NCBI GenBank assembly: GCA_050291445.1 | Contig: JBNKJW010000241.1 | Span: 6,943-70,942 of the forward strand | Length of the DNA: 64,000 nucleotides | Direction: 5' to 3' | Source of the DNA: Bacteroidales bacterium | GTDB lineage: Bacteria; Bacteroidota; Bacteroidia; Bacteroidales; NBLH01 | Shown: in pieces, positions 638 through 16,236 of the stretch | Layout: each line of letters opens with the position of its first letter | Numbering within the stretch: position 1 is the stretch's first letter | Made by a program: the position numbers and the translations under genes | The notes under the pieces: generated by a model | The model's input: the letters and a program-made list of their open reading frames with translations, nothing else | Database searches by the model: none | What the model was told of the DNA's origin: nothing

Positions 638-2446
638 ATGACAACACAGAAATTAATTGATAACCTAATATTAAATGAAAATGCTTATTTCTTTACAAAG
701 ATTAGATCTGGACTACTTAGTAAAGCACTCATTGAAAGAACCTTTAAGGAGGCTTCATTGGAAAAAGCAGGAAACTTCCTATTGAATAAAGTTAAACAGA
801 CAATTCAGGTTGATGGCCAAAACATAGAGTATTCAATCTGCGTGTTCAAATATTCAAAAAAACCTTCCTTTATTAAAGAGGAAGTTGCTAATTGGTATGA
901 AATAAAGTTGGCATACATTGTCATTGTTGATTTTGATTCTTATGTTGCCATATCAAAAAGAAATATTTCAGGAACAAAAGAATTATATAAAAAAATATTT
1001 CCAATAGATTATAAAACAATGTCGTCCCTTTTTATAAAGGAATCAACTGCAATTGAGAAACTATCTATGAACAACATGAATGTTTCAGATAATGCTGTTC
1101 GACAAAAAAGCATGGAAGCAATTGACTTAAAAGAAAGTGTCTCAACCTTTGGATTGCAAAGTTATATATTGAGTAACATAAGATTAAATAATGACGATGA
1201 CAAAGTGTCCCTATCTCTCAATTCATCACGAATAAATAGATTTGGCCGGAAAAACAATCTTAATTTCTTTACCTCCTGGTCAAAAGTGATAATTGATAGA
1301 ATAATAAACTTTACCGAAACAAATAATTTTATTTCATCATTTGCCCGTCCTTTGAATTTTGAAGATGAGAGTCAATCATTGAAGCCAATTGCTGTTCTAT
1401 TTCTTTTCACAAAGCTTTATGATGCTTATGAAGCAGGAAAAATTGAATCTACAAAAATTATACTTGAAGATATTGAAAGAGATATTGATTTAGTCTCAAT
1501 TCTGGATAATTTTTCAAGACTTATTAAGATTAATGAATTAAAACGCGGCAAAAGTAATTCATATTTTAAAGTAGATACTTCGATAGTAAATGACTTGACT
1601 GTTTCAATTAATCAAAAATCAATATCATTACGTTCACCAAAATTAAAGAATGTTATAATAAAATTCTCTGATGAAACAGAAATCTCAATAATCGAATATT
1701 TTAATAGATATAGTTGCTTTATAATAAATTTTGACAGAGTTGAACTCGTTTATAGTCACAGAAAACTTTTTAAGGATAGTCGTCTTTTAGGAAATACAGA
1801 GAATTTCCTAAAAGTATTTAAACCATACGGTGAACTTGACAATGTGACTAGTGAGAAAGGTTCAATAAACAAGTCTTCTACTGAGTTTTCATCTGAATCA
1901 ATTTTTGGATTCGTTGAGAATGAATTTCTAAATGACTCGCAATATTTTATTTGTGATGATTTAGGTCGGGAATGGGCAGACCATATTGGTTTGTATGATG
2001 ACAGCATTTCTTTTTTTCATTCAAAATATAAAGACTCTGAATTTTCGGCTTCAGATTTTCAGGACATTGTAGGCCAAGCGCAAAAGAATTTGGGAAATCT
2101 AAGTCCTGTAGATAATCAATTTCAAAGCAAAAAAGAATTGTGGGACAGAAATTATGTCTTAAAAGGCACTGAGTCAAAGATTTCAAGAACCCGAAAAGGT
2201 AGTTCTTCAGAGCAAGCAGTAGACTATTTTAAAGAATTAAAAACATCTCTAAACATAACAAAAAGGGTATATCTTGTCATAAACTTTATTTCTAAAAGTG
2301 AATTATCAGATAGACTTGATAAATTAAAAAGAGATGAATCGTTCAAAGAAAGAAATGAAGTAATCCAAATTTTATGGTTTATTTCATCGTTAATTTCAAG
2401 TTGTTATGAAGTTGGTGCTGAATCATATATTATTTGTAAACCTTAA
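638..2446 (+). CDS. hypothetical 602-aa protein, no family recognised (candidate defence-island gene)
   Basis: Long uninterrupted ORF 64 nt after the WYL gene on the same strand. The only suggestive motif is FICDDLGREWADHIGLYDDSISFFHSKY near the C-terminal third (possible degenerate nuclease-like acidic/Lys cluster). Followed by a hairpin. Confidence 0.6.
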   Translation: MTTQKLIDNLILNENAYFFTKIRSGLLSKALIERTFKEASLEKAGNFLLNKVKQTIQVDGQNIEYSICVFKYSKKPSFIKEEVANWYEIKLAYIVIVDFDSYVAISKRNISGTKELYKKIFPIDYKTMSSLFIKESTAIEKLSMNNMNVSDNAVRQKSMEAIDLKESVSTFGLQSYILSNIRLNNDDDKVSLSLNSSRINRFGRKNNLNFFTSWSKVIIDRIINFTETNNFISSFARPLNFEDESQSLKPIAVLFLFTKLYDAYEAGKIESTKIILEDIERDIDLVSILDNFSRLIKINELKRGKSNSYFKVDTSIVNDLTVSINQKSISLRSPKLKNVIIKFSDETEISIIEYFNRYSCFIINFDRVELVYSHRKLFKDSRLLGNTENFLKVFKPYGELDNVTSEKGSINKSSTEFSSESIFGFVENEFLNDSQYFICDDLGREWADHIGLYDDSISFFHSKYKDSEFSASDFQDIVGQAQKNLGNLSPVDNQFQSKKELWDRNYVLKGTESKISRTRKGSSSEQAVDYFKELKTSLNITKRVYLVINFISKSELSDRLDKLKRDESFKERNEVIQILWFISSLISSCYEVGAESYIICKP

Positions 2447-2468
2447 TAGTAAGAAAATGCGCTATTAG

Positions 2469-2524
2469 TCAGGCGTAAGCCAAGTCCCCCATTTTGGGGG
2501 CAGAAAAGCTTTGCTGGTGCCTGA
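2469..2524 (+). terminator. compound hairpin downstream of the 602-aa gene
   Basis: ccccc-atttt-ggggg (2486-2500) nested inside tcaggc (2469-2474) / gcctga (2519-2524). No clear U-tract. Confidence 0.35.
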
Positions 2525-2629
2525 TCACATTGTGTTCCTTAACATAAAACAAAATATGATATCAAAATGACCAACTATCTTCCATCCAGCTTTAAAAGTT
2601 TCTACCTTTAGCCCTCTAAACAAAAAAAT

Positions 2630-4216
2630 ATGATAACCGGAGAATTAAAGTCAAAAATAGATCAAATTTGGAACGTATTCTGGACAGGTGGGGTCACCAA
2701 CACCATTACAGTGGTGGAGCAGCTCACCTATCTCATTTTTATTAAAGATTTGGACAACATTGAAACCTTAAACGAGTTAAAAGCCAAGCGCGGTTTTAAA
2801 TACACCCCCATCTTTAACAAAGAGCAACAACATTTCCGTTGGAAAAACCTAAAAGAAATGGATGTGGCTCAACGTCACACCATTTTTTCCAATACAATAG
2901 ATGGTATCTTCCCCTTTATACGTGAATTAGGCAAAGATAAAAGCCTGTTTGCCACGCACATGCGAGGAGCCACCTTTGGAATTTCCAAACCGGCAACGCT
3001 TGACCAGGTAATGGAAAAACTCGAAGCCATTGACATGAGTGACCAGGACACCAAAGGCGACATTTACGAATACCTGCTCTCAAAATTGGAAGGAGGAGGC
3101 ACCGCAGGCCAGTTCCGCACCCCAAGGCACATTATAAAGATGATGGTTCGTTTAATGCAACCTACTTTGGATGATATCATTGCCGACCCGGCATGCGGTA
3201 CAGCTGGTTTTTTGGTAGCCTGCAAAGAATACATTGACAAGCACTACGATGTAACCGAAATTGACAAAAATTCAGAGCACATCAACAAGCACATGTTCAA
3301 TGGCATGGAGTTCGATGCTACCATGCTGCGCATTGCATCCATGAACCTGTATTTGCATGGAGTAGAAGAACCCAACATTATTGATGTAGATGCCGTAAGT
3401 AAAGACAACACCATTGCCGAAACTTACACCTTAATTTTAGCAAATCCGCCATTTAAAGGCACCATTGACAAAGAAAGCATTGCCACCGGCCTGAAAAATG
3501 TAACCGACACCTCAAAAACCGAACTTTTGTTTCTGGCCTTAATGCTTCGCCAGTTAAAATCAGGAGGACGCTGTGCAGTAATTGTGCCCGATGGCGTATT
3601 GTTTGGCAATGGCAAAGCCCACAAATCCATTCGCGAAGAAATCATTGCCAACAACAAGCTGGAGGCTGTTATTTCTATGCCCAGTGGCATATTTAAACCC
3701 TATGCCGGGGTAAGCACTGCCATTTTAGTTTTTACCAAAACAGGCACAGGCGGCACCGATAAGGTTTGGTTTTACGACATGAAAGCCGATGGCAAATCCC
3801 TCGACGACAAGCGTAACCTGCTGATAAGCGAAGAAATTTTCGACAGCTTTGTAATGACCACCGGCATTAGCCAGGAAGAAGCCGACAAATTGCACGACAA
3901 TTTCAACCTGCCAGACATTATCACTCGTTTTCGTTCCCTGAGCGCGGTCACTGAGCGAAGTCGAAGTGAAGCCGAAGGGAGCGGAGCCGACTCCCGGTCA
4001 TCGAGCGGAGTCGAGATGAACCGCAAACGCACCGACCAATCCTTCCTCGTACCTTTCAACGAAATCAAAGAAAACGAATGGGATTTATCCATCAATAGAT
4101 ACAAGGAAATTATATATGAAGAGATTAAATTTGACAGACCTGAGGAAATAATAGGACGTATTAAAAAGTTAGATGATGAAAGATTAAAATTAATTCAAAC
4201 TCTTAGCAATATTTGA
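2630..4216 (+). CDS. hsdM: type I restriction-modification system, DNA methyltransferase subunit M
   Basis: HsdM_N-like N-terminus, AdoMet motif DPACGTAGFL, catalytic NPPF (aa 272-275, nt 3443-3454), and C-terminal FLVPFNEIKENEWDLSINRYKE typical of HsdM. Confidence 0.95.
   Translation: MITGELKSKIDQIWNVFWTGGVTNTITVVEQLTYLIFIKDLDNIETLNELKAKRGFKYTPIFNKEQQHFRWKNLKEMDVAQRHTIFSNTIDGIFPFIRELGKDKSLFATHMRGATFGISKPATLDQVMEKLEAIDMSDQDTKGDIYEYLLSKLEGGGTAGQFRTPRHIIKMMVRLMQPTLDDIIADPACGTAGFLVACKEYIDKHYDVTEIDKNSEHINKHMFNGMEFDATMLRIASMNLYLHGVEEPNIIDVDAVSKDNTIAETYTLILANPPFKGTIDKESIATGLKNVTDTSKTELLFLALMLRQLKSGGRCAVIVPDGVLFGNGKAHKSIREEIIANNKLEAVISMPSGIFKPYAGVSTAILVFTKTGTGGTDKVWFYDMKADGKSLDDKRNLLISEEIFDSFVMTTGISQEEADKLHDNFNLPDIITRFRSLSAVTERSRSEAEGSGADSRSSSGVEMNRKRTDQSFLVPFNEIKENEWDLSINRYKEIIYEEIKFDRPEEIIGRIKKLDDERLKLIQTLSNI
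3938..4020. repeat. GC-rich in-frame mini-insertion inside hsdM with two related ~22-nt units
   Basis: cggtcactgagcgaagtcgaag (3944-3965) and cggtcatcgagcggagtcgaga (3994-4015) lie 50 nt apart. The local composition is clearly GC-richer than the flanks. Encodes SAVTERSRSEAEGSGADSRSSSGVEM in the variable linker before the conserved C-terminal HsdM helix. Confidence 0.5.
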
Positions 4217-4217
4217 T

Positions 4218-5414
4218 ATGAATAATCAAGTTAAAATAGATGATTGCTTTGATTTTGTCAGAAATGGTCTATCGATAAAACAGGAGAATGGCAAAAAAGG
4301 AATACCAATAACAAGGATTGAGACAATTTGGAATTCTAATATTGATATAAATAGGTTTGGGTATGCAGATATATTTGATATCGATAAATACTCTTCTAAT
4401 TTATTATCTGTTGGTGATTTATTAATGACTCATATTAATAGCCCAAAGCATCTTGGTAAATGTGCAATTTATGAAGGTATTCCAGAAAAGCTGATACATG
4501 GAATGAATTTACTATGCCTAAGACCATCAGAAAGTTTATTCCCCAAATATGCCTTTTACTTCTTCAATTCAAATAATTTTAAATCAAAAATTCCAAAAAT
4601 AAGCAATCAGTCTGTTAATCAAGCAAGCTTTTCAGCAGGTAAGCTTAAGGAACTCAAAATCCCCCTCCCCCCCCTCCAAACCCAAAAAAAGATTGCCCAA
4701 ATCCTCGACCAGGCCGATGCCCTGCGCAAAAAGACACAACAAATTATCGATGAATACGATAAACTCGCCCAATCCATCTTTTTGGATATGTTTGGGGACC
4801 CGGTTACTAATCCGAAAAGGTGGGAGAAAAGACTTTTAGGAGATATTACAAACCTTGTTACAGATGGTAAACATGGAGACTGCAATGATGAAGAAAATTC
4901 TGGTTATTATTTCATTAGTGCTAAAGATGTAAATAATTCAACAATTAACTATTCTAATGCAAGGCAAATAGTAAAAAAAGAGTTTGAAGAAGTTGATAGA
5001 AGAACAAATCTTCAACCAGGTGATTTAGTTATGGTAAATACTGGTGCAACTATTGGAAAGATGGCAATTGCAAAAAATATTCCTGAAACCAGAAAAACAA
5101 CTTTTCAAAAAAGTGTAGCTGTAATAAAATGTAAGGAAGAATTAATTAGAAGTATTTTTTTGAAATATGTATTTCTATTAAGAATAAACACATTTGCTAA
5201 TAGAGGTTCTGGATCAGCTATAAAAAACCTTTTATTATCAGAAATGAGAAGGTTTAAAATTATTGTTGCTCCTATTGAACTCCAAAACCAATTTGCAGAA
5301 AAAATAAAACTCATCGAACAACAAAAAGAACTGGCAAAACAAAGTTTAAAAGAGAGTGAGGATTTATTTAATGCACTGTTGCAAAAGGCGTTTAAGGGGG
5401 AGTTGGTAAAATAG
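4218..5414 (+). CDS. hsdS: type I restriction-modification system, specificity subunit S
   Basis: Starts 1 nt after the hsdM stop. Two variable TRDs are separated by the conserved spacer LPPLQTQKKIAQILDQADALRKKTQQIIDEYDKLAQSIFLDMFGDP, with a second conserved helix at the C-terminus (ELQNQFAEKIKLIEQQKELAKQS...LLQKAFKGEL). Confidence 0.9.
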   Translation: MNNQVKIDDCFDFVRNGLSIKQENGKKGIPITRIETIWNSNIDINRFGYADIFDIDKYSSNLLSVGDLLMTHINSPKHLGKCAIYEGIPEKLIHGMNLLCLRPSESLFPKYAFYFFNSNNFKSKIPKISNQSVNQASFSAGKLKELKIPLPPLQTQKKIAQILDQADALRKKTQQIIDEYDKLAQSIFLDMFGDPVTNPKRWEKRLLGDITNLVTDGKHGDCNDEENSGYYFISAKDVNNSTINYSNARQIVKKEFEEVDRRTNLQPGDLVMVNTGATIGKMAIAKNIPETRKTTFQKSVAVIKCKEELIRSIFLKYVFLLRINTFANRGSGSAIKNLLLSEMRRFKIIVAPIELQNQFAEKIKLIEQQKELAKQSLKESEDLFNALLQKAFKGELVK

Positions 5415-5429
5415 GAATTTTTAAATAGC

Positions 5430-5447
5430 CCTGGGCTTCAGCCCGGG
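5430..5447 (+). terminator. GC-rich hairpin between hsdS and the nested cassette (possible attenuator or REP-like hairpin)
   Basis: cctgggc-ttca-gcccggg gives a 7-bp stem with one G-U pair. No U-tract follows. Confidence 0.3.
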
Positions 5448-5505
5448 TAGAACAATACCATATCAAACATGGCTTTAGCCAAATTAATAAGATATAAAAA
5501 ACAAT

Positions 5506-6111
5506 ATGGAAACAAACTTTAACAATGAAATTTTCCCAACTGAAAAATTCAAAACTGAGAGTGAGTATATTGCCTCTTTAATTCAAACCATTGATTCTAT
5601 CGAAACTGATATACAAAAGAGAGCAAACACTCTGATAAAACTGGAAACTTTTTATGAAAAAAGAGAGGCTGATGAAAAACGCATGGCCAGGCTTGATTTA
5701 TTTAAGAAAGAATTTGGTGAATTAAATGTTACAGACAAGAAAGGAAAAACCAAAAAATACGAAGGCCTTTATATTTTTATTGATAAGGACAAACCAGTAT
5801 ATGTAGGTATTTCCAGAAATATTATTTCTCGTTTACGAAATCATGCGTGGGGCAAAACTTCTGTCACTTCCTCTTTAGCTTATTTAATGGCAAAACAAGA
5901 ACATGGGAACTTAAATAAGGATATTTACAAGGACAACATAAACGAAATAAGGGAGAAATATCTCGAAAAAGTTCGGGAATTTAAGTTGTATATCTATCCA
6001 TTTAAGGGACAGGAGAATACTGAAACTTCTGAGTATTACTCCCTCCAACTTTTGGAGGTATTACTTTCTGTTAGATTAAAAACTTGTTGGAACACATTTA
6101 AAACCCATTAA
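5506..6111 (+). CDS. GIY-YIG nuclease-domain protein with N-terminal coiled-coil region
   Basis: EGLYIFIDKDKPVYVGISRNIISRLRNH (aa 86-113) fits the GIY..YIG..R..H pattern. First gene of the coupled five-ORF run. Confidence 0.6.
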   Translation: METNFNNEIFPTEKFKTESEYIASLIQTIDSIETDIQKRANTLIKLETFYEKREADEKRMARLDLFKKEFGELNVTDKKGKTKKYEGLYIFIDKDKPVYVGISRNIISRLRNHAWGKTSVTSSLAYLMAKQEHGNLNKDIYKDNINEIREKYLEKVREFKLYIYPFKGQENTETSEYYSLQLLEVLLSVRLKTCWNTFKTH

Positions 6112-6113
6112 AT

Positions 6114-7265
6114 ATGTATTTTTTCTCCGAAACTGACCCTAATTATCGTATCAAAGGCTCCAGAGATCCATTGGGTTTTCAAAGCCTGTGGGCGGCTGCC
6201 GGTCATAAAGCAGTAGCTCATCTTTCAACGGTTTCGGCCAACCTGCGTGATTTTATGATTTTGGCTTATGCCACCTACTTTTATGGAAACAGAAATGAAA
6301 GTTATTTTCTGAATTTCTTTTTAAAATTTGAGCAGGTTTGCGCCTATGCCCGCAAAATATATCTGCCAGCAGAGGGTTTCAATGGAATCGATTTTGTAAA
6401 TAAACGGAAAGATGACCCCAGTTTTTTTATCTCTTTAAAGCCATCGGACACACTACTTAGCAATCAGCGCGCCTATGGCATTTATGGTAAATACATTCGT
6501 CCTACGCGCGACATGGGTTTTACCAGGGCCGAAGAATTTAATTCAGTAATGGAACAGTCTCTGTCTAAAACGAACAAATTGGCTGTTCTTCGCTTTGTAG
6601 AGCAATTGCTGAATAATGATAGAACAGAAATTGTCAAAGATGAACTTAAGCCAATGGCTGATTTATTAAGCCAATTAACCCAACCGGAGAAAGAATTATA
6701 TCGGAATTATCTTTTAAAAGTTCCTGACAGCAATCATCCTCAAAACAATTTATACTCTTTAGTAGAAAATAACCGAAGTATTGCTGAAAGCGAATTTAAC
6801 CTGCATGCTACTGTTCAGGTTCTACAAAATCAAGAGGGCATCTCTGCCGAGTTAAACAATGCTCTTGAAAATATCAGAAATACGGATAGAGTGCTTTTGC
6901 CTTTAAATAGGTGTTTTACACACTTATTAGGCCAGTCGCAATGGACATTGAAACAAATTGAAGATGACAGCTTTATTCAGAACTTACCAAGGAGTATTAA
7001 TTATGTGTTTACCGATTCCACCATGCAGGATCTTAATGGGATATTATCGCTTAAAAGCACCGAACTAATTGACAAAATAATAGAAAGAAATGACCATGTA
7101 AAACAAGGAGGACGTGCGTGGATTAAGAAAAAAGATGGCTTATACAAAGTAATTTATGGAGAAAGCGGCCAGATACAAGCCGATATCGATTTCGAAAACA
7201 GCTATGAATTCCCCTATTTTTTAAACACCTGGTTACATCTTTACAAACAAATAGAGTTAAATTAA
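6114..7265 (+). CDS. hypothetical 383-aa protein, no family recognised
   Basis: Starts 2 nt after the GIY-YIG stop, and its own stop overlaps the next ATG (TAATG). Conserved-looking N-terminal block IKGSRDPLGFQSLWAAAGHKAV. Has only two Cys residues and no CxxC-type zinc-ribbon motif. Confidence 0.6.
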   Translation: MYFFSETDPNYRIKGSRDPLGFQSLWAAAGHKAVAHLSTVSANLRDFMILAYATYFYGNRNESYFLNFFLKFEQVCAYARKIYLPAEGFNGIDFVNKRKDDPSFFISLKPSDTLLSNQRAYGIYGKYIRPTRDMGFTRAEEFNSVMEQSLSKTNKLAVLRFVEQLLNNDRTEIVKDELKPMADLLSQLTQPEKELYRNYLLKVPDSNHPQNNLYSLVENNRSIAESEFNLHATVQVLQNQEGISAELNNALENIRNTDRVLLPLNRCFTHLLGQSQWTLKQIEDDSFIQNLPRSINYVFTDSTMQDLNGILSLKSTELIDKIIERNDHVKQGGRAWIKKKDGLYKVIYGESGQIQADIDFENSYEFPYFLNTWLHLYKQIELN

Positions 7266-9223
7266 TGGAGCAGTACGTTATTATAGAAAAGCTAAAAGAA
7301 GCAATCAATGGGCGCAAGGTAATAGCTGCGGTATTTTACACCTTTAATTTTGATGCTCGCTTTTTCGAAAACTATTTGCTGCCAATCTTTTTACCACATG
7401 TAAATTTTTCCGATAATGAAATTCAAAACACCATACTTTGGCGCAAATATGTTAACGATTTGCCCTATGTGACTGTTTATTGCGATTTTCATGCAAAAAG
7501 TGACAATGCTCCGAATTTACCCTACCTGGTAAGAACAATAGACCTTCCAGCTGTAAATGGTCACAAAGCCTGTTTTCACCCAAAAGTTTCATTTATATTG
7601 CTTGAAGATGAGTGTTTATTGGTGCTAACTGGTTCTAATAACTTAACAGTTGGTGGTTGGTGCACAAATAGGGAAATAATAGCCATTAAAGAGCTTCAAA
7701 ATGGGAGATATTTTCCATACGAGCAAAAACACCAACTCTGGGATTTTTTGAAAACTAGCAACCAACTTAATGGAGCCGATTATTCAATTGCAGAAAAAAA
7801 CATTGATGCTTTCTATAGCAAAAGGCTGCACACTGAAAATGCCGATTTCTTTTTCTTTAATTCTGCGAAAAATTCATTTATCGATTATCTAAAAAACATT
7901 ATTATAAATGATGATGATACCCATTTTGAAAAAATAGAGGTTATTAGTCCGTATTTAACCACGGGAATTAATTTAGTTAACCAATTAACAGAAATTGTAA
8001 ATAAAGAAAACATCTATTTTAATGTTCCCTATAAAAACAGTGAAGAAGCTGAGATTACACAAGAAAACTATTATGCTTTTCAGCAGGCAGGGGTAAAATG
8101 GTCAAGATTAAAGCTTAAAGAATCAGAAAAAGGCTTTCGGTTTAATCACAGCAAAATATATCGCTTAAAAACGAGTAAAAAAGCGTACACAATTCTAGGT
8201 TCGGTAAATTTCACCGAAACTGCTTGGAAGGGAAGAAAAGATAACGGAAATCTTGAAACTGCAATTGTTTACGTTGAACCACTCGAAAACTGGCAACCTC
8301 TTTTAGAGCAATTCCACAATAATGACATCATCTTTGCAAAAGAGCAGACGGATGAAACCCATGTGGATAATCGAATGGATGCCCCTGATTTAGCGTTTAA
8401 ATTGAATTGGACTGAAAGAACGCTTGAATACAATAATTTGCCCGATTTCAAATTCTCAGGGCTCATTAAATTCATTGCAAAAAACATTGAGTTAAAAGAA
8501 GGATTAAACGCGCTAAAATTAGAGGATGCAATGCTTGAAGAGCTTGCTCAAAATCCTGCCATAAGGGTGTGGCAATACCATGTTAAACGAGAGCTGATTT
8601 ATTTTCCGGTACAGGAAGGTTTTGAGAGTAAACCAATCCCGCAAAAACTTAGATTAAAGGATGGGGAGCTTATTCAATTATGGGAAAATGTTTCGATAAA
8701 AGAAGTGAACAAATCTGAAATTGCTGGCCTTATTGAAAAGTTTATTATGGCTCGCATGAATGTCGATGGAGATTTGAAAAAGGAAACAGAGCTTTCAAAA
8801 TCAACACTTAATTTAATGGCATCGCATATTAGTGCCTTAATCCGATTGGAAGAACGCATTTTTACAGCACCAAAACTAAAACGGGATTACCTGATAGCCA
8901 AGGAGTTAATTGACTACTATCTGTTTGTCGTTAATATTGATACACTTTCAGGATATCAGGATTTGCTTGACGAAATGTATCAGGAAAAGACCATTTTACC
9001 TGGGGTCTATTGGTTCTTGTTAAATGTCCTTATTAATGATTTTTACAATTACGATAAAATAAAAAAGTTCTATAAAGAGGTAGAATGTCCTGTTAATGAT
9101 TTAAAAAACAGGATTGATGTTATAACAAAAAAAAATCAAACAATCACTGACAGACTTAAAAATGAGTTAAAAGAGGATGGCCTCAACATGGATTTATTAA
9201 AATGGATTAAAAAGGAGTTGTAA
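7265..9223 (+). CDS. phospholipase-D-family (dual HKD) nuclease with ~330-aa C-terminal extension
   Basis: HKD-1 is CFHPKVSFILL..LTGSNNLTVGGW (H105/K107, nt 7577). HKD-2 is FNHSKIYRLK..ILGSVNFTETAW (H294/K296, nt 8144). Residues 325-652 have no recognisable motif. Confidence 0.85.
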   Translation: MEQYVIIEKLKEAINGRKVIAAVFYTFNFDARFFENYLLPIFLPHVNFSDNEIQNTILWRKYVNDLPYVTVYCDFHAKSDNAPNLPYLVRTIDLPAVNGHKACFHPKVSFILLEDECLLVLTGSNNLTVGGWCTNREIIAIKELQNGRYFPYEQKHQLWDFLKTSNQLNGADYSIAEKNIDAFYSKRLHTENADFFFFNSAKNSFIDYLKNIIINDDDTHFEKIEVISPYLTTGINLVNQLTEIVNKENIYFNVPYKNSEEAEITQENYYAFQQAGVKWSRLKLKESEKGFRFNHSKIYRLKTSKKAYTILGSVNFTETAWKGRKDNGNLETAIVYVEPLENWQPLLEQFHNNDIIFAKEQTDETHVDNRMDAPDLAFKLNWTERTLEYNNLPDFKFSGLIKFIAKNIELKEGLNALKLEDAMLEELAQNPAIRVWQYHVKRELIYFPVQEGFESKPIPQKLRLKDGELIQLWENVSIKEVNKSEIAGLIEKFIMARMNVDGDLKKETELSKSTLNLMASHISALIRLEERIFTAPKLKRDYLIAKELIDYYLFVVNIDTLSGYQDLLDEMYQEKTILPGVYWFLLNVLINDFYNYDKIKKFYKEVECPVNDLKNRIDVITKKNQTITDRLKNELKEDGLNMDLLKWIKKEL

Positions 9224-9226
9224 ACA

Positions 9227-12200
9227 ATGCATTTATCAGAGGAAATAGCAAAAAAGATTATCAATCTTAATCCCTATCCTGAAAAGCAAATCATTGATTT
9301 TGACCTGGCTGAAAGGCAGTTTCAGGTTATTCTTCGGGGATTTAATTATTTGTTACAACCCGAAAATAAATTCTTGTACATTGGTGATGAAGTCGGATTA
9401 GGCAAAACTTATATTGCATTAGGAATAGCCTCACTTTTAAGATTGTATTCTGAAAGCCCTGAAACATATATTGATACGATACTCGTTCCAAAGGAGAATT
9501 TGCAATACAAATGGTTTAAAGAAATACGTAACTTTATCAGTCATAATTATTTAGAAAAAGACAACATTGTAAAATCCGTATTAAACCGTCCTGTAGGACA
9601 GCTAAAGGACAAGAGCATAAAAAAATCTCTGGCAGTCTTTGAGAAAGATCATGCCCAATATGTCATTTACCGCAATTCATCATTTAGCATTGCATCAGAT
9701 AACGAGGAAGAAGAGAACTCAATCTGGATTAGTAAGTTAACAGAAAAACTACCTGAAGAACAAAAACAACTTTTCCAACAAATTACAAAACGATTCAGAA
9801 ATAACAATAGCTTAATAAAAAGGGCATATGCCTATTTATTTAACCACACGCTGCCTGAAACAGATCTGCTTATTGTTGATGAAGCCCATAATTTCAGGCA
9901 TGGAACAGGCAAAGATGTTTCAATCAGGAATCAAACAGTTTCACGTATGTTTGGAGCTGTTCATGATGATGAGGAACTTTTCGAGTATTTTCCTCAGCTT
10001 ATAGAATTATCAAAACCAAAAGTAAAAAAGCTGCTCTTACTGTCAGCTACTCCCATAAATAATTCATTACTTGAAATAAAAAACCAATTGGATTGTTTTA
10101 TTCCTAATCATCGGTTTTCTCATTTGCCGAATGATAAAGAGGGTGAAGAATGCATAAACAAAGCTTTAAATGAGTTTATGATTCGCGGAGTAATGAATGT
10201 TAAGGTAAACAATGCTCAATATAGCAGAAACGGGTATCGGCATGAGCATCGCAACGGAAATGTCGAAATGAAAGAGTTTTCAGGGCAGCAGATTCTGAAG
10301 GACAATGCCACCTCTTTAGTGTTAAGTTTGATGCAATATAAAATAATTAAAGAACTTAAATTAAAAAGTGGGAATCAGTTTGAAATGGGAATGCTTGCTG
10401 GGTTTGAAAGCTTTCAAAAAGCAAGCTCCACCTACGAAGATGAGACCCTTTCAAGCCGAAAAGAAAAGGAAGCCAAAGATGAAGCGGTGTTAAAGCAAAT
10501 CATTGAATCATACAGTGAGACTTTTAAAAACTATCCTCCCCATCCTAAACAAGAAAGTTTGGTTGAAGAGCTTTTTCAATTAATGATCCAACGAGAAAAA
10601 TCACTGGTTTTTGTACGTCGGATTGCATCTGTCAGGGAACTTGAAAGAAAGTTGTTTAAAAAGTACAGTGATTTCCTCATTGAAAAAATCAAGAAGGTTA
10701 CAGTAGGGACAGATATTGAATCAATAAAGGTTTTACTAAGAAACTACGAGGATGAATTCGTCCGCGAAGGAATAGAAACAACATTAGATGTTCTTGAAGA
10801 AAGGATAAAATACGATTTAAAACGAGATGAAAATTACCAGCCTGATAATGGAGAGTCAATTGAGCAGATAATTTCAAAAGATTTACGTGAAATTTTTTAC
10901 TCTCTGGTTGATAACACTGAGATTAATAACTACAGGGAAGAAATAAAAAGTCATGTTGGACGTAAAAACATCAAACAGGAGTTAAAAGACATTGCAAAAG
11001 ACCTGATAATCAGAAAATGGAACAACATTCTTGTTCTTGATGAAGCTGAAGATGAGGATGATGAGAACACATTGCAGGAAAATTATCATAATGAGGAGAG
11101 GGCTCCCTATTTCTTTCAGCGATTTTTTTACAACGAAGGAAAAAAATTCAAAAACAGGAGCTATAAAAAGGACTGGTATGAACTAAACCTGGTTTTACTT
11201 AATGATAAATACAATCTGTTTGATTTAAAAAGGAAGAAAATATTATGTCAGGAATATGAGTTTTTTGATGAGCTTGTTGATGTTAAAAAATTCAAGTCAT
11301 TAACTGACAAAACAATTGAGGCAATAAAAAGTGATTTACTTACAGAATCAGAAATCAATAGCGAATTTAGAAGCAACACTTTCTTAACCGAGTTATTATT
11401 AAATTTATGCGAAGTCGAATTTTCAACATGGGTTGATTACCATAAAAAACTTATCTCAAACAGCTATTATTCGCGTTTTCTTAAAGAAATTGACTTCTTG
11501 ACTGAAATATTAAAAAGTATTTTCAGGCAGGGAAGCGGTTTATTACCGGCATTTATTGCTGAAGCAAAAACATCAAAAAAAGAAGATCCAAGAAAGGCAT
11601 TTATCAGTGAAATGAAAGACCTGTTGACTGGTGAGTTTGATTTTGTACTTGACGAAATAAAACAGGTTTTGAGAGATTATGAAAAACTCGTTGAAAGAAA
11701 TTTCGATGACAAAGATAAAATCAGATACAACCTGATTCAGCAATTACCAGTTGCCGGAATTAGCGGGCATCACAAAAAAGATGTCAGAAAATCTGCCATA
11801 CAGTTTCGCATGCCGGGTTATCCTTATGTTCTTATTACTACCGACATATTAAAAGAAGGAGAAGACCTGCATGCTTATTGCAAAAACATCTATCATTATG
11901 GTATAGCCTGGAATCCTTCCGATATGGAACAAAGAACTGGTAGAATTGATCGGGTAGACTCAATGGCCTACAGATTGATTAAAGAAGTTGAAAAGAAAGG
12001 TTTAAGTGAAATTCCGTTTCATAACAAACTCCAGGTCTTTTATCCTTATTTGGCTGATACTCTCGAAGTAAATCAGATGATAAAGTTGTTTGACGGAATG
12101 GACAAATTCATTGAAATATTTTATAATGATCTATCAGCAACAATTGAGAAAAATTCAAAAGCCAATGTGGATGATATTGTTTTGGATATTCCTGAGCAGC

Positions 12201-12739
12201 GTAAAGGTCTTTTGAAATCAAAATATGATTATGACTCATTCTCCCAGTTCTATAATGGTGAAGAACTTTGCTTAAAAAGCGCAATTGGCACAACCTTCGA
12301 TGAACTTTCTTTAAAACTGAATCAAATACTTTCAGAATTATTAAAATTTGAATACAAAGTAAAACCAGAGTTTGATTTTCATGATTTGGCTATTTCCGGT
12401 ATTATGTCTGTTAACGACAGAAATGGGCCATTTAAACTTTATTTTAATCAGAAAGAACAACCAGGTCAATTCGAGTTTAAAATGAAATCGTTGTTAGGCA
12501 AAGTACAGTTACTTGGCAAAAAGTCCAATAAACAAAAACTTGAAGAAGAAATACAATTAAGAAGTGTTGGTGAAAAAATTGAATTAGAAATAAAAGAATC
12601 AAACTCATTCGCTTATCTTACTACCTCTGCTGGTTATTCAATAGCAATAAATGAAGTAGTGGATAAACTTATTAAACTGATCAAAATAACTGATGATATT
12701 GAATATAAGATAATTGGTACTGACGAAATTCCGGAATAA
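9227..12739 (+). CDS. SNF2-like SF2 ATPase/helicase, C-lobe split by a large charged insertion
   Basis: Motif I DEVGLGKT (K60, nt 9395-9409), motif II VDEAH (218-221, nt 9878), motif III LLSATP (270-275), motif IV-like KSLVFVRRI (458-466), motif V LITTDILKEGEDL (869-881), motif VI QRTGRIDR (902-909, nt 11930). A ~350-aa E/K/D-rich insertion lies between aa ~481 and ~833. Confidence 0.85.
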   Translation: MHLSEEIAKKIINLNPYPEKQIIDFDLAERQFQVILRGFNYLLQPENKFLYIGDEVGLGKTYIALGIASLLRLYSESPETYIDTILVPKENLQYKWFKEIRNFISHNYLEKDNIVKSVLNRPVGQLKDKSIKKSLAVFEKDHAQYVIYRNSSFSIASDNEEEENSIWISKLTEKLPEEQKQLFQQITKRFRNNNSLIKRAYAYLFNHTLPETDLLIVDEAHNFRHGTGKDVSIRNQTVSRMFGAVHDDEELFEYFPQLIELSKPKVKKLLLLSATPINNSLLEIKNQLDCFIPNHRFSHLPNDKEGEECINKALNEFMIRGVMNVKVNNAQYSRNGYRHEHRNGNVEMKEFSGQQILKDNATSLVLSLMQYKIIKELKLKSGNQFEMGMLAGFESFQKASSTYEDETLSSRKEKEAKDEAVLKQIIESYSETFKNYPPHPKQESLVEELFQLMIQREKSLVFVRRIASVRELERKLFKKYSDFLIEKIKKVTVGTDIESIKVLLRNYEDEFVREGIETTLDVLEERIKYDLKRDENYQPDNGESIEQIISKDLREIFYSLVDNTEINNYREEIKSHVGRKNIKQELKDIAKDLIIRKWNNILVLDEAEDEDDENTLQENYHNEERAPYFFQRFFYNEGKKFKNRSYKKDWYELNLVLLNDKYNLFDLKRKKILCQEYEFFDELVDVKKFKSLTDKTIEAIKSDLLTESEINSEFRSNTFLTELLLNLCEVEFSTWVDYHKKLISNSYYSRFLKEIDFLTEILKSIFRQGSGLLPAFIAEAKTSKKEDPRKAFISEMKDLLTGEFDFVLDEIKQVLRDYEKLVERNFDDKDKIRYNLIQQLPVAGISGHHKKDVRKSAIQFRMPGYPYVLITTDILKEGEDLHAYCKNIYHYGIAWNPSDMEQRTGRIDRVDSMAYRLIKEVEKKGLSEIPFHNKLQVFYPYLADTLEVNQMIKLFDGMDKFIEIFYNDLSATIEKNSKANVDDIVLDIPEQRKGLLKSKYDYDSFSQFYNGEELCLKSAIGTTFDELSLKLNQILSELLKFEYKVKPEFDFHDLAISGIMSVNDRNGPFKLYFNQKEQPGQFEFKMKSLLGKVQLLGKKSNKQKLEEEIQLRSVGEKIELEIKESNSFAYLTTSAGYSIAINEVVDKLIKLIKITDDIEYKIIGTDEIPE

Positions 12740-15700
12740 TGGCAACAAACTTTCAATTCTTACAATCCGAATGGCCCGAGTTTTTCCAACGCTCAGCCAA
12801 AGCCGAAAAGTTAATGATTACCGATCCGCGCACTTCATTAACCTATGCCCGCATGGCTTTAGAACTGGCTGTTAATTGGATGTACGAAAACGACCCCGAT
12901 TTGGAATTGCCATACGATACCTCTCTGAATTCCCTCATGAAACAACATGAGTTTAAAAATCAATTTGCTCACCGACTTTACAACGACATTGACATCATTC
13001 GCAAAGTAGGCAACCTGGCCATTCATAACAAGCCGGTTTCTGCTGTCGATTCAGAAAAAATAACCACCAACCTTTTCTATTTTGCAAAATGGTTTGCCAA
13101 ATCCTACACCGAAACCGATGCAATTGAAGCAGGGCTGTTTAATTACGACATCATCCCCAAAGAAGGCGAGGCAGCTTTAAGTAAAAAACAACTCGCAAAC
13201 CTTCAGCAGCAGTTCGATAAAGATTTAAAAAGCTCGCAGGAAGAACTAAAAAAGACCCTTGCACGCAACAAAGAGCTACTGGAAGAAAACGAACTACTCA
13301 AAAAGCAATTACAAGCGCAAGCAGAAAAATTTGAGGCGCAGAAAGAAATTGCCAACCACGAGGACGAAATAAAACACCCTCGTAACGAATACGAAACAAG
13401 GAAATACATCATTGATATTGCCTTGCGTGCTGCAGGTTGGGATTTGCAGGGAGTTAACGACAAGGAGTTCAAAGTGGAGCACATGCCCCTTTCAACCAAC
13501 AAATCCGGAACCGGCTATGTAGATTACGTCCTTTGGAACGATGATGGAAAACCCCTTGCTTTGGTTGAAGCCAAAAAAACTCTGGAATCAGTAAAAAAAG
13601 GAGAAAACCAGGCTCAGTTGTATGCCGAAAGTTTAGAAAAAATGTTTGGTGTGCGCCCGGTAATGTATTACACCAATGGTTTTGAAACGTATATGTGGGA
13701 CGACCAGTTTTACAAAAAATCCCGTCCCGTACATGGTTTCTATACCAAAAGCGAGTTGCAAACCATTTTTTACAGACGCCAGCACCGAAAAGACATTCGT
13801 AAACACGAAATAGATACCCTGATAGCAGGGCGTTCGTACCAAATGCGTTCCATCAAAAGTATTGCAGAGCATTTTTCAGGAAACGACAAAGCAACAGGCA
13901 AACTAATTGGAACCAATCACGGAGCCTTATTGGTTTTAGCAACAGGAACCGGAAAAACAAGAGTCTCCATTGCTTTTAGTAAATTGATGTTCGAGGCTAA
14001 CTGGGCAAAACGCATCTTGTTTTTGGCCGACAGGGTAAGTCTGGTCAACCAGGCAAAAAGGGAATACACAAAACATTTGCCTGACCATTCCAACGTAAGT
14101 TTGTTGGAAGAAAAAGAAAATACCACCACCCGTTTGGTATTCTCCACCTATCAAACCATGATGGGCTTAATTGACGAACTAAAAGACGGCGAAGAGCACT
14201 TTTACGGCGTAGGCCATTTCGATCTAATTATTTTCGACGAAGCACACCGCTCCATTTATCGTAAATACCAGGCCATTTTCGAATATTTCGATGCCTTGTT
14301 CCTGGGCTTAACTGCCACACCAAAAGACAGCATCGATAAAAATACCTACGAAATTTTTGGCTTGGCCGATAAAAAGCCAACCGATGCCTATCCGTTTTGG
14401 GAAGCAGTAGAGAAAAAGCACCTGGTAGGTTATCGTAGTATCGAAGTGCCTACCAAGTTCCAGACCCAGGGCATCAAATACAAAGACCTTTCACCTGAAG
14501 AAAAAGAAGAATTTGAAAACGAAATACTCGATGGTGAGGAAGCAACAGGCAATGAAAGGGTTGATAAAAATGCCCTGAACAAGTGGCTGTTTAATAAAGA
14601 CACAACCATAAAAACGCTGAATTACATCCTGAAAAATGGAATCAAAAAACGGGGTGGTGAAGAAATAGGGAAAACCATCATCTTTGCACGTAACCGCAAA
14701 CATGCCGAATTCCTGAAAGACATGCTGCTTGACATGGATAAAGAGCAATACAGCAATGATTATGTAAAAGTAATCACCTACAAAGAAGAAAAAGCCGAAG
14801 AATTCATTCGTCGTTTTTGTGATGATGAAGTAGAGCGTCTGCCTCAAATTACTATTTCAGTTGACATGCTCGATACAGGAATTGATGCGCCAAGCGTAGT
14901 CAACCTGGTGTTTTACAAACCAGTAAAGTCATTTTCAAAATTCTGGCAAATGATAGGCCGTGGTTCCCGCTTGCGGCCAGATTTATTTGGCCCGGGAAAG
15001 GACAAAGATAAGTTCTTGATTTTTGATTTATGTGGCAATTTCGAATTCTTCGAAGAAAACCCCGAAGGCATTGAAACAGGCATTCAAAAAAGTCTTACCG
15101 AAATTATCTTTAACCTGAAACTACAACTGGCACAATACCTGAAAGATGGAAAGCTTCAGAAAAACGAGGAATTTCAGCAATACCGCACCAAACTACTGGA
15201 TGAATTATATTCCGACATTGCAAACCTTGACAAAGACAGGTTTGACGTAAAAATGAAATTAAAAACCGTGCTCGAATACGGCAGCGATAATCGTGAACTG
15301 TGGAATCACCTGCAAAAGAAGGATGTTCAAACCATACAGGATGAATTAGCCATACTGGTAAAACCAGCAAAAGACGATACCGACTTAGCCCGTTTTTACG
15401 ACAAGTTGTTATATACACTTATCTTAAAACGCATCGAAACACCGGTTTCCGAAGTATATTTTGATAAATATGTTGGCCAGATTTCAAGAGTAGCCAATCT
15501 CTCACAAAAGCTGTTAACGAAAACCTCCATTCCAAAAGTCAGGGAAAAAGAAGACCTGATAAAAATGCCCTTAGACGAAAACTTTTGGAAATTGGATGGC
15601 ATTACCCATTTGGAAAACATTAGGTCAGGCTTGCGCGACCTCATAAAATACATCGACAGAGAAGACCAGAAATATGCTGTAACAGATTTTGAAGACACCT

Positions 15701-16236
15701 TATATGAAGAAAATGTCAAAATAAAAGATTATGTAGGTAATGAGCCTCCGGCAAGTTACGAAAGCCCGTTTAAAAACAACATTCACCGATTAGAAGAAAT
15801 CATTCGAAAAAATCAGAACAACATCACCATAGGTCGCATTCGAAGCGGCCAGCAAATAACCAAAGAAGAATTACAATCATTGGAGTTGATGTTATTCAAT
15901 GAAAAACTAAAAAAGGAAGAAATCGAAAAAGAATTAGGAAAGCAGTTAGACCTTACTAAATTCATCATTGAACTAACAGGCCTAAGCGAAGAACACGTTA
16001 ACCTGGCCTTTGCCAATTTCATCAACACCTATCAATTAAATTCAGTACAAATTGAATTTCTGGAAACCATCAAACAATTCCTGACCAAAAACGGCAAAAT
16101 AAACCCCATGAAACTATACGACTCACCATTTAAAAAATACCATAACCTTGGCATCGAAGGCGTATTCAACAACGAACAAACTGATAAGATTTTTGAGTTG
16201 GTAGAGAGGTTGAATGGGGTTACTAAAGGTGCATAA
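12739..16236 (+). CDS. hsdR: type I restriction enzyme, endonuclease/translocase subunit R
   Basis: The ATG overlaps the helicase stop (TAATG). PD-(D/E)xK core GYVDYVLW..PLALVEAKK (D262, E277, K279), helicase motifs ATGTGKT, FDEAHR, TATP and QMIGRGSR, and an EcoEI-R-type C-terminal segment (NSVQIEFLETIKQFLTKNG). N-terminal helical module plus coiled coil (aa 1-215). Confidence 0.9.
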   Translation: MATNFQFLQSEWPEFFQRSAKAEKLMITDPRTSLTYARMALELAVNWMYENDPDLELPYDTSLNSLMKQHEFKNQFAHRLYNDIDIIRKVGNLAIHNKPVSAVDSEKITTNLFYFAKWFAKSYTETDAIEAGLFNYDIIPKEGEAALSKKQLANLQQQFDKDLKSSQEELKKTLARNKELLEENELLKKQLQAQAEKFEAQKEIANHEDEIKHPRNEYETRKYIIDIALRAAGWDLQGVNDKEFKVEHMPLSTNKSGTGYVDYVLWNDDGKPLALVEAKKTLESVKKGENQAQLYAESLEKMFGVRPVMYYTNGFETYMWDDQFYKKSRPVHGFYTKSELQTIFYRRQHRKDIRKHEIDTLIAGRSYQMRSIKSIAEHFSGNDKATGKLIGTNHGALLVLATGTGKTRVSIAFSKLMFEANWAKRILFLADRVSLVNQAKREYTKHLPDHSNVSLLEEKENTTTRLVFSTYQTMMGLIDELKDGEEHFYGVGHFDLIIFDEAHRSIYRKYQAIFEYFDALFLGLTATPKDSIDKNTYEIFGLADKKPTDAYPFWEAVEKKHLVGYRSIEVPTKFQTQGIKYKDLSPEEKEEFENEILDGEEATGNERVDKNALNKWLFNKDTTIKTLNYILKNGIKKRGGEEIGKTIIFARNRKHAEFLKDMLLDMDKEQYSNDYVKVITYKEEKAEEFIRRFCDDEVERLPQITISVDMLDTGIDAPSVVNLVFYKPVKSFSKFWQMIGRGSRLRPDLFGPGKDKDKFLIFDLCGNFEFFEENPEGIETGIQKSLTEIIFNLKLQLAQYLKDGKLQKNEEFQQYRTKLLDELYSDIANLDKDRFDVKMKLKTVLEYGSDNRELWNHLQKKDVQTIQDELAILVKPAKDDTDLARFYDKLLYTLILKRIETPVSEVYFDKYVGQISRVANLSQKLLTKTSIPKVREKEDLIKMPLDENFWKLDGITHLENIRSGLRDLIKYIDREDQKYAVTDFEDTLYEENVKIKDYVGNEPPASYESPFKNNIHRLEEIIRKNQNNITIGRIRSGQQITKEELQSLELMLFNEKLKKEEIEKELGKQLDLTKFIIELTGLSEEHVNLAFANFINTYQLNSVQIEFLETIKQFLTKNGKINPMKLYDSPFKKYHNLGIEGVFNNEQTDKIFELVERLNGVTKGA

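Follow-up and report, generated by a model that had tools for sequence, protein, structure and literature searches.

The window analysed here is a stretch of 64,000 nucleotides from a Bacteroidales bacterium (assembly GCA_050291445.1, contig JBNKJW010000241.1, positions 6,943 to 70,942 of the forward strand). At 9227..12739 on the plus strand (window coordinates are used throughout) it contains an open reading frame for a 1170-residue SNF2-like superfamily 2 (SF2) ATPase of the PDC-M27C type, identified by means of PADLOC, Pfam and Foldseek and encoded next to a PLD-family nuclease and a 383-residue protein. Our principal finding is that the second RecA-like lobe (RecA2) of this helicase is, almost beyond doubt, interrupted by a real inserted domain, positioned at the loop that follows the motif IV helix. 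As modelled, the insertion is an all-helical domain of ~345 residues (residues 492-838; 10700..11740, plus strand, as are all helicase features given below) located after the motif IV helix and before the strand with which RecA2 resumes. The helicase family has already been catalogued as a defence candidate; we found no description of this insertion site in the literature, and no significant match to the fold was obtained in PDB or BFVD.

Position of the insertion within the RecA2 lobe

We modelled the helicase with AlphaFold2 on the basis of 77 aligned homologues that are 35-72% identical to the query, yielding a predicted local distance difference test score (pLDDT) of 85.3 and a predicted template modelling score (pTM) of 0.83. 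In this model, a helix at residues 440-454 is followed by a strand at 458-462 and a helix at 466-491, after which helices alone are found through residue 835. Beyond this point the chain continues with a strand at 842-845, a helix at 853-860, a strand at 868-871 (motif V), a strand at 885-890 and a helix at 897-905 (motif VI). This predicted order is that of a canonical RecA2 with a large all-helical interruption after its first helix. The motif IV strand KSLVFV, together with the unusually long helix by which the chain exits RecA2, occupies residues 458-491 (10598..10699) according to the model, the Helicase_C match and the alignments discussed below. RecA2 resumes at 11741..12046, as indicated by Helicase_C, by alignments to RapA and by the strand and helix order of the model. 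The resumed portion contains the modelled strand VAGISGHH (residues 842-849, 11750-11773), motif V (VLITTDILKEGEDL, which includes TTDILKEGEDL; 11828-11869) and motif VI (QRTGRIDR; 11930-11953), the latter two located by alignment to RapA.

Profile comparisons led to the same assignment. In the native helicase, Helicase_C was matched at residues 839-910 and over profile positions 39-109 only, while the C-terminal part alone matched positions 41-109 with 33.9 bits. When residue 478 was joined in silico to residue 839, the match extended over positions 5-109 and reached 48.5 bits. Likewise, a spliced-lobe profile made from 16 family members produced one continuous alignment to the solved RecA2 lobes of DDX53, E. 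coli RapA (residues 501-607) and eIF4A, in which KSLVFV fell on motif IV of each structure and the splice junction fell in the loop that leads from the motif IV helix to the following strand; against RapA, the unspliced profile produced nothing more than scattered fragments. Taken together, the element order of the model, the spliced Helicase_C match and the unbroken spliced alignment indicate that RecA2 is truly split after motif IV, in agreement with the initial annotation, which had proposed from the letters alone that ~350 residues divide the lobe.

That annotation had also allowed that motif IV might be mis-assigned and the lobe contiguous. In this case the extra sequence would represent the canonical SNF2 major insertion between the lobes, as found in INO80, SWR1 and SRCAP. 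Consistent with such an explanation, a whole-chain Foldseek search ranked SWR1, INO80 and SRCAP highest, and their alignments, ~1050 columns long, bridge a large insertion. However, the major insertion region lies upstream of motif IV in the Snf2 block order, and the span from motif III to motif IV is already of normal SNF2 length in the helicase described here (~182 residues, compared to 177-196 in the 77 homologues). One report places the major insertion, which is enlarged in INO80 and SWR1, between blocks C and K (bioRxiv 10.1101/2023.08.09.551721). Moreover, residues 492-841 lack any predicted strand of at least 3 residues, the Helicase_C gain of 14.6 bits with coverage of positions 5-109 was obtained only when residues 436-478 were joined to residue 839 onward, and the spliced lobe aligned without a break to DDX53, RapA and eIF4A with KSLVFV on motif IV. 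We consider a contiguous RecA2 scarcely credible, and rejected it based on the modelled order, the splice gain and the alignment to solved RecA2 lobes.

All of the sequence landmarks given in the initial annotation could be reproduced. KSLVFVRRI was located at residues 458-466 of the 1170-residue reading frame, GISGHHKKDV begins at residue 844, and the ~260 residues said to follow motif VI were counted as 261. The range it had assigned to the insertion, 10665-11725, does cover residues 480-833, but is one base out of frame, as the corresponding codon starts at 10664, a discrepancy of no consequence.

With respect to the remainder of the motor, motifs I, Ia, II, III, IV, V and VI occur in order, are invariant across the 77 homologues and align to those of SNF2h and RapA. 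Translation places the RecA1 motifs DEVGLGKT (motif I) at 9386-9409, VPKENLQYKW (motif Ia) at 9485-9514, DEAH (motif II) at 9878-9889 and SATP (motif III) at 10043-10054. The ordinary SNF2-type region between motifs III and IV (residues 301-457, 10127..10597) is modelled as the first strands of lobe 2 and helical protrusions, with strands at 318-341 and helices at 360-380, 417-433 and 440-454 preceding motif IV. A Pfam search with this span at E-values up to 10 gave nothing above noise. Pfam matches were to ResIII, SNF2-rel_dom and Helicase_C; the SNF2-rel_dom match (27.5 bits, compared to a cutoff of 24.9) is marginal, since its coverage is limited to residues 50-152. PADLOC scores were 1.3e-69 and 4.1e-64 for two PDC-M27C models, 2.6e-24 for ZacC and 9e-14 for DrmD, ZacC being the SF2 helicase of Azaca, a system that also comprises ZacA (DUF6361) and ZacB (PLD nuclease). 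In the whole-chain Foldseek search of PDB, ranks 1-42 were occupied by Snf2-family proteins (SWR1, INO80, SRCAP, Rad54, ZorD, Chd1, ISWI and RapA), with RIG-I first appearing at rank 43. By its motifs, profile matches, motif III to IV span and nearest structures, the protein is classified as a Snf2-family SF2 ATPase.

The C-terminal region (residues 941-1170, 12047..12736) is modelled as a helix followed by a mixed sheet and helix domain at residues ~1043-1162, and its Pfam search at E-values up to 10 returned noise only. This last domain is confidently modelled; it is mostly absent from a 909-residue relative, which stops ~100 residues past motif VI, and is shortened in a 946-residue relative. 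One possibility is that it serves some members as a sensor or for binding DNA, as an optional module.

Anatomy and distribution of the inserted domain

When the insertion was modelled in isolation (residues 480-838), it folded with a pLDDT of 86.4 and a pTM of 0.80 into ~21 helices with one disordered segment. The insertion is predicted, then, to be a folded, compact, all-helical accessory domain bearing a single disordered acidic loop. The initial annotation had instead emphasized a stretch rich in E, K and D with heptad-like helices. Charge is indeed raised, but modestly so: charged residues make up 37.6% of the insertion compared to 28.7% of the rest of the helicase, with family averages of 31.7% and 27.6%, respectively, and residues 480-838 carry a net charge of -17. 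The heptad-like or coiled-coil character could not be confirmed. A low-complexity charged linker was rejected in view of the confident folding and the mild charge enrichment. An intein or recent mobile insertion was likewise rejected: intein and nuclease families were not found, the G+C content resembles that of the surroundings, and the insertion is present in all relatives.

Conservation across the 77 homologues differs along the domain. Its N-terminal helical arm (residues 492-600, 10700..11026), modelled as helices at 498-532, 545-557, 564-575 and 584-598, one of which is ~35 residues long, is variable and displays the lowest column conservation in the protein (0.29-0.38). There follows the disordered acidic loop (residues 601-626, 11027..11104; ILVLDEAEDEDDENTLQENYHNEERA), in which pLDDT falls below 50 at residues 607-622. 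The acidic run LDEAEDEDDENTLQE, which the initial annotation had correctly placed inside the stretch, begins at residue 604. This loop has a median length of 22 residues, of which 41% are D or E; its net charge has a median of -7 and is positive in none of the 77 homologues. Its sequence is variable, while its acidic character is kept. Directly after the loop lies a conserved aromatic and basic patch (residues 627-660, 11105..11206; PYFFQRFFYNEGKKFKNRSYKKDWYELNLVLLND), with the consensus YFF..YF...EG..FRKR.Y..DW...N..LLN, an invariant N654 and a median net charge of +4.

The C-terminal third of the insertion, a helical bundle at residues 712-838 (11360..11740), is both its best conserved and its most confidently modelled part (pLDDT 90-96), and leads back into RecA2. 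The motif FRQGSGLLPAFIA lies within it (11522-11560), and the motif FRNGSGLLPAYIA of this third bears two invariant glycines. In total, residues N654, L758, G769, G771, E810 and N825 of the insertion are invariant. The acidic loop, the patch and the C-terminal motifs are still recognisable in the most divergent members (909-1022 residues), and in the shortest relatives the insertion profile was best matched at positions 234-341, corresponding to the C-terminal bundle.

In isolation, the insertion matched no Pfam family at E-values up to 10 beyond noise, and no PADLOC model, those for PDC-M27C included. Since it scores on none of the PADLOC models, the insertion of this subfamily is strongly diverged within the PDC-M27 family. 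Foldseek found no significant match to its fold in PDB (best E-value 3.6) or among the BFVD viral models (best E-value 1.1).

More than 700 database proteins matched the helicase. The 120 matches listed are all full length, nearly all of them having 1130-1230 residues, and for most the alignment takes in 92-100% of the query. In the 77 homologues, 339-427 residues separate motif IV from the next strand, a tight distribution. When 1.84 billion representative proteins were searched with a profile built from the insertion alone, 50 clusters only were found, and all full-length matches placed the insertion at approximately residues 470-880 of proteins of 909-1212 residues. PDC-M27C was the best PADLOC match for each of the full-length carriers checked (9/9). 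Because the insertion is present in relatives at one position and confined to 50 clusters, we regard it as a defining, family-restricted feature. As judged from these profile searches, it is specific to the PDC-M27C helicase family and always occupies the same position, in keeping with the suggestion of the initial annotation that the element is particular to this system.

Candidate functions of the inserted domain

Accessory insertions are common in SF2 motors. In a lobe of the RecA type, motif IV is followed by a helix directed away from the face that binds ATP and nucleic acid. Since the insertion emerges from a loop at the far end of that helix, it should leave the motor intact and project from its distal side. 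For Azaca, all three proteins and the Walker A motif of ZacC are required to cleave phage T4 DNA (bioRxiv 10.1101/2025.07.10.664194), from which it follows that the helicase must contact its partners. The 909-residue relative has lost most of the C-terminal domain, yet it retains both partner genes and the conserved elements of the insertion. Given this relative, the insertion is the only family-specific module that is always kept, making it the best candidate for a coupling surface. Docking is further favoured by the conservation of the three genes as a set in all loci examined, and has a precedent in the insertions of INO80 and SWR1, discussed below.

We hypothesize that the insertion acts as both adaptor and switch. 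The conserved C-terminal helical bundle would sit on RecA2, and the insertion would provide a docking surface for the PLD nuclease, the 383-residue subunit or both. The acidic loop and the aromatic and basic patch would constitute an electrostatic gate, with the loop masking a patch that binds DNA or a partner and giving way once the right DNA has been engaged, whereupon ATP-driven translocation might be coupled to DNA cleavage. The placement of the acidic loop beside the patch suggests such a gate, by analogy to the trigger loop of DrmA. We assign this combined adaptor and switch role a probability of roughly 40%. Taken separately, docking of partners stands at even odds in our estimation, while gating by the acidic loop is rather doubtful. 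The most inclusive version would have an undescribed fold, at an undescribed Snf2 site common to Azaca and PDC-M27 despite complete sequence divergence there, license the PLD nuclease once phage DNA has been engaged, with the acidic loop serving as a DNA mimic over the patch; we consider this full combination unlikely.

Several observations weigh against the adaptor and switch model. The Azaca data come from a distant relative, whose inserted stretch is without detectable similarity to the insertion described here (hhalign probability 0.1%). Disordered loops of acidic character are widespread, and such loops can be without functional effect. Finally, conservation is poor (0.29-0.38) over the first two thirds of the insertion, which would fit a surface under selection by phage but would equally fit a loosely constrained spacer.

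The same features can be accommodated by other functions. If the insertion were a substrate-specificity module, it would grip DNA, read a phage feature such as hypermodified cytosines or DNA ends, and choose the target instead of docking partners. The positive charge of the patch (median +4) and the variability of the N-terminal arm, as expected of a specificity surface, are in line with this idea, as is the preference of BmAzaca for T4 DNA containing glucosyl-hydroxymethylcytosine (bioRxiv 10.1101/2025.07.10.664194). Nevertheless, we view a specificity module as improbable, given that the domain bears no likeness to a known DNA-binding or modification-reading fold in Pfam, PDB or BFVD, that it is net acidic (-17 over residues 480-838), and that RecA topology would direct the emerging loop away from the DNA-binding face; furthermore, the sheet-rich C-terminal domain and the 383-residue protein are equally good sensor candidates.

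Less probable still is an oligomerisation arm, in which the helicase would dimerise through a hairpin or coiled coil built from helices 466-491 and 498-532, pairing motors as in type I enzymes. The modelled helices of 26 and ~35 residues at the base of the insertion, the earlier impression of heptad-like stretches and the translational coupling to a type I hsdR gene, discussed below, are compatible with such an arm, but the isolated domain is compact (pTM 0.80) instead of an extended rod, the helical arm is its least conserved part, and no heptad analysis favours a coiled coil. The insertion might also have no specific role, as a passive spacer or an evolutionary relic that a permissive loop tolerates; this could explain why the N-terminal two thirds are weakly conserved and why the inserted stretches of PDC-M27C and ZacC lack detectable similarity. 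We find this idea very hard to reconcile with an insertion that is kept at constant length in every member found, at identities down to ~35%, that contains invariant residues and regions folded with high confidence, and whose acidic loop and neighbouring patch are kept in the most divergent members.

The insertion represents the one accessory module that is kept by every member of the PDC-M27 branch, and it is placed precisely in the RecA2 fold. It offers three small, conserved targets for mutagenesis, namely the acidic loop, the YFF...FRKR...DW patch and the FRNGSGLLPAYIA motif, and these conserved elements provide experimental handles on an Azaca-like system. The report on Azaca offers neither a structural model of the complex nor an account of how the motor controls the nuclease (bioRxiv 10.1101/2025.07.10.664194). 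If, on the other hand, the domain is structural decoration, the finding would amount to a note on the domain architecture of a candidate defence gene.

Operon context and comparison with known systems

The helicase gene is the third of three adjacent genes in the order A-B-C on one strand (6114-7265, 7265-9223 and 9227-12739), with ends that overlap or nearly abut. The first (6114..7265, plus strand) encodes the 383-residue protein, whose weak match to PDC-M27A in PADLOC (E-value 5e-06) is for the whole protein, with no individual stretch passing; it matched no Pfam family at E-values up to 10, DUF6361 included. A gene encoding 382-391 residues occupies the first position in 7/7 loci examined. 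The second gene (7265..9223, plus strand) encodes the PLD-family nuclease partner, a 652-residue PDC-M27B and ZacB-like protein (PLDc_2, 3.7e-10; PDC-M27B, 1.4e-23, spanning residues 7-386; ZacB, 5e-07). The order and sizes of the three genes agree in all loci examined.

Together with a gene for a GIY-YIG domain protein, the trio lies inside a type I restriction-modification operon, with hsdM/hsdS on one side and hsdR on the other. These flanking genes, all on the plus strand, are hsdM (2630-4216, assigned by reading its translation), hsdS (4218-5414, Pfam Methylase_S) and hsdR (12739..16236, Pfam ResIII, EcoEI_R_C and HSDR_N), which encodes the type I restriction subunit. The GIY-YIG protein (201 residues, 5506-6111; Pfam 8e-06 and a weak PADLOC match to UzuA) is encoded directly before the trio. 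Its gene is missing from that position in the other loci examined, and so it is probably not a core component. The stop codon of the helicase gene overlaps the start codon of hsdR in the sequence TAATG at 12737-12741, which suggests co-translation of the two genes. In a Polaribacter relative (L001), the trio likewise adjoins hsdM and hsdS genes. No RuvB-like partner gene was seen among the operon genes examined.

Other features of the neighbourhood include a GC-rich imperfect inverted repeat, GCCCTGGGCTTCAGCCCGGG, in the 91 bases that separate hsdS from the GIY-YIG gene (5415-5505), which could be a hairpin, terminator or attenuator within the operon. The hsdR product carries an N-terminal DUF4145 (residues 21-106) before HSDR_N, ResIII and EcoEI_R_C. 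The hsdM product contains a low-complexity stretch rich in serine, arginine and glycine at residues ~455-485 (3990-4090; SRSEAEGSGADSRSSSGVEMNRKR), and it is in this low-complexity region that the G+C content of the neighbourhood is highest (0.407 for 2001-4000). At 40-2446, a WYL-domain protein (40-573) is followed by a 602-residue protein that matches the PADLOC candidate PDC-S71 nearly end to end (E-value 1.5e-214), which would make its gene another defence candidate of this island.

Based on its profile matches, we classify the locus as a PADLOC candidate PDC-M27 system, consisting of the 383-residue protein, the PLD nuclease and the helicase, and as a sister of Azaca, not Azaca itself. 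Likeness to PDC-M27 is strong for the helicase (1.3e-69 to PDC-M27C) and the PLD protein (1.4e-23 to PDC-M27B), whereas the first gene matches PDC-M27A weakly (5e-06). In the PADLOC model of PDC-M27C (892 positions), the segments matched by motif IV and by motif V are themselves separated by ~290 positions. PDC-M27 is a PADLOC candidate only; we found no paper naming it and no experimental report of phage protection.

Azaca-type systems confer very strong protection against T4-like phages (bioRxiv 10.1101/2025.07.10.664194). A genome scan revealed many loci with helicases that scored 786-1127 bits on the ZacC model from end to end, including 20 genuine Azaca loci with the same three-gene order and products of ~400, 600-700 and 1000-1130 residues. 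In the 2 loci whose upstream genes were checked, these encode a DUF6361 protein (ZacA; 3e-55 and 1e-65) and a PLD protein. Azaca loci (among L005-L048) come from widely separated lineages, among them a Methanotrichaceae archaeon, Actinomycetes, Sphingomonas, Desulfosporosinus and Campylobacteraceae.

The locus described here agrees with Azaca in gene order, in approximate gene sizes and in the ZacC core motifs, which its helicase has in common. Its PLD protein is homologous to the ZacB family (hhalign probability 96.5% over 286 columns), and the distance from motif I to motif VI is 845 residues, compared to 818-926 in ZacC. However, on the ZacC model the helicase obtains 84 bits, through the core motifs only, while true ZacC proteins score ~1100; its motif II is DEAH, in contrast to DEFQ in ZacC. 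Moreover, its inserted stretch displays no profile similarity to that of ZacC (hhalign probability 0.1%), and its first gene is without a DUF6361 match even at E-values up to 10. Permissive whole-protein hhalign alignments to ZacC were unreliable outside the core motifs and were disregarded. Comparison of the 383-residue protein to DUF6361 ZacA proteins (L033 and L013) gave a weak, colinear alignment over 41 N-terminal columns (GSRDPLGFQ...LSTVS; E-value 0.0098, probability 4%), which could reflect very remote homology or chance. Because the PLD proteins are homologous but the first genes are not demonstrably so, and because the inserted stretches are dissimilar, the locus was filed under PDC-M27 instead of Azaca.

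On the ZacC model, motifs II-III map to positions 204-290 and motifs V-VI to 843-905. In ZacC, ~590 residues separate motif III from motif V, compared to ~300 in DrmD, and ZacC possesses an invariant motif-IV-like K(R)L(V/I)FS (KRLIFS) ~366 residues before motif V. In an in silico deletion test of ZacC, the Helicase_C score rose by no more than 1.4 bits and the profile match extended to position 19. In view of the long motif spacing and the motif-IV-like sequence, genuine ZacC helicases are probably split at the same place.

DrmD of DISARM is likewise an SNF2-like motor encoded with a PLD-family protein (DrmC) in a defence island beside restriction-modification genes, and motifs V and VI of the helicase match it (9e-14). 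In contrast, the motifs of DrmD are spaced in the ordinary way (motif II at ~254 of the profile, motif V at ~581), and the helicase described here scores 66.6 on the NCBIfam DrmD model compared to a cutoff of 610. In DISARM DrmA, the DNA site is blocked by an unstructured loop that target DNA pushes aside (PMC9142583). This provides a precedent for a loop that covers the DNA site of a defence helicase, although the DrmA trigger loop belongs to another helicase and to a different part of the chain.

RIG-I Hel2i and the Snf2 protrusions are all-helical accessory modules on lobe 2 of SF2 enzymes, with regulatory or substrate-gripping roles, and both precede motif IV. The initial annotation had drawn an analogy to both; it holds as a functional parallel, but the insertion occupies a different place in the fold. 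Its site is probably distinct from that of Hel2i, and no PDB chain, RIG-I included, was matched significantly by the insertion in isolation (best E-value 3.6). With respect to the Snf2 protrusions, the helicase has the usual protrusion region plus the extra domain.

INO80, SWR1 and SRCAP resemble the helicase in being Snf2 motors interrupted by an insertion of several hundred residues, and they are its best whole-chain structural matches (E-values of 4e-08 to 2e-06). The insertions of INO80 and SWR1 are docking sites for RuvB-like hexamers (PMC7445562). In contrast to these, the insertion described here lies downstream of motif IV and its helix, following a pre-motif-IV region of ordinary length, and in isolation it has no structural match to INO80 or SWR1; its site is distinct from theirs. 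If genuine Azaca helicases are indeed split at the same place, the insertion site would represent a clade-level feature of these defence motors, distinct from the arrangement in INO80 and SWR1.

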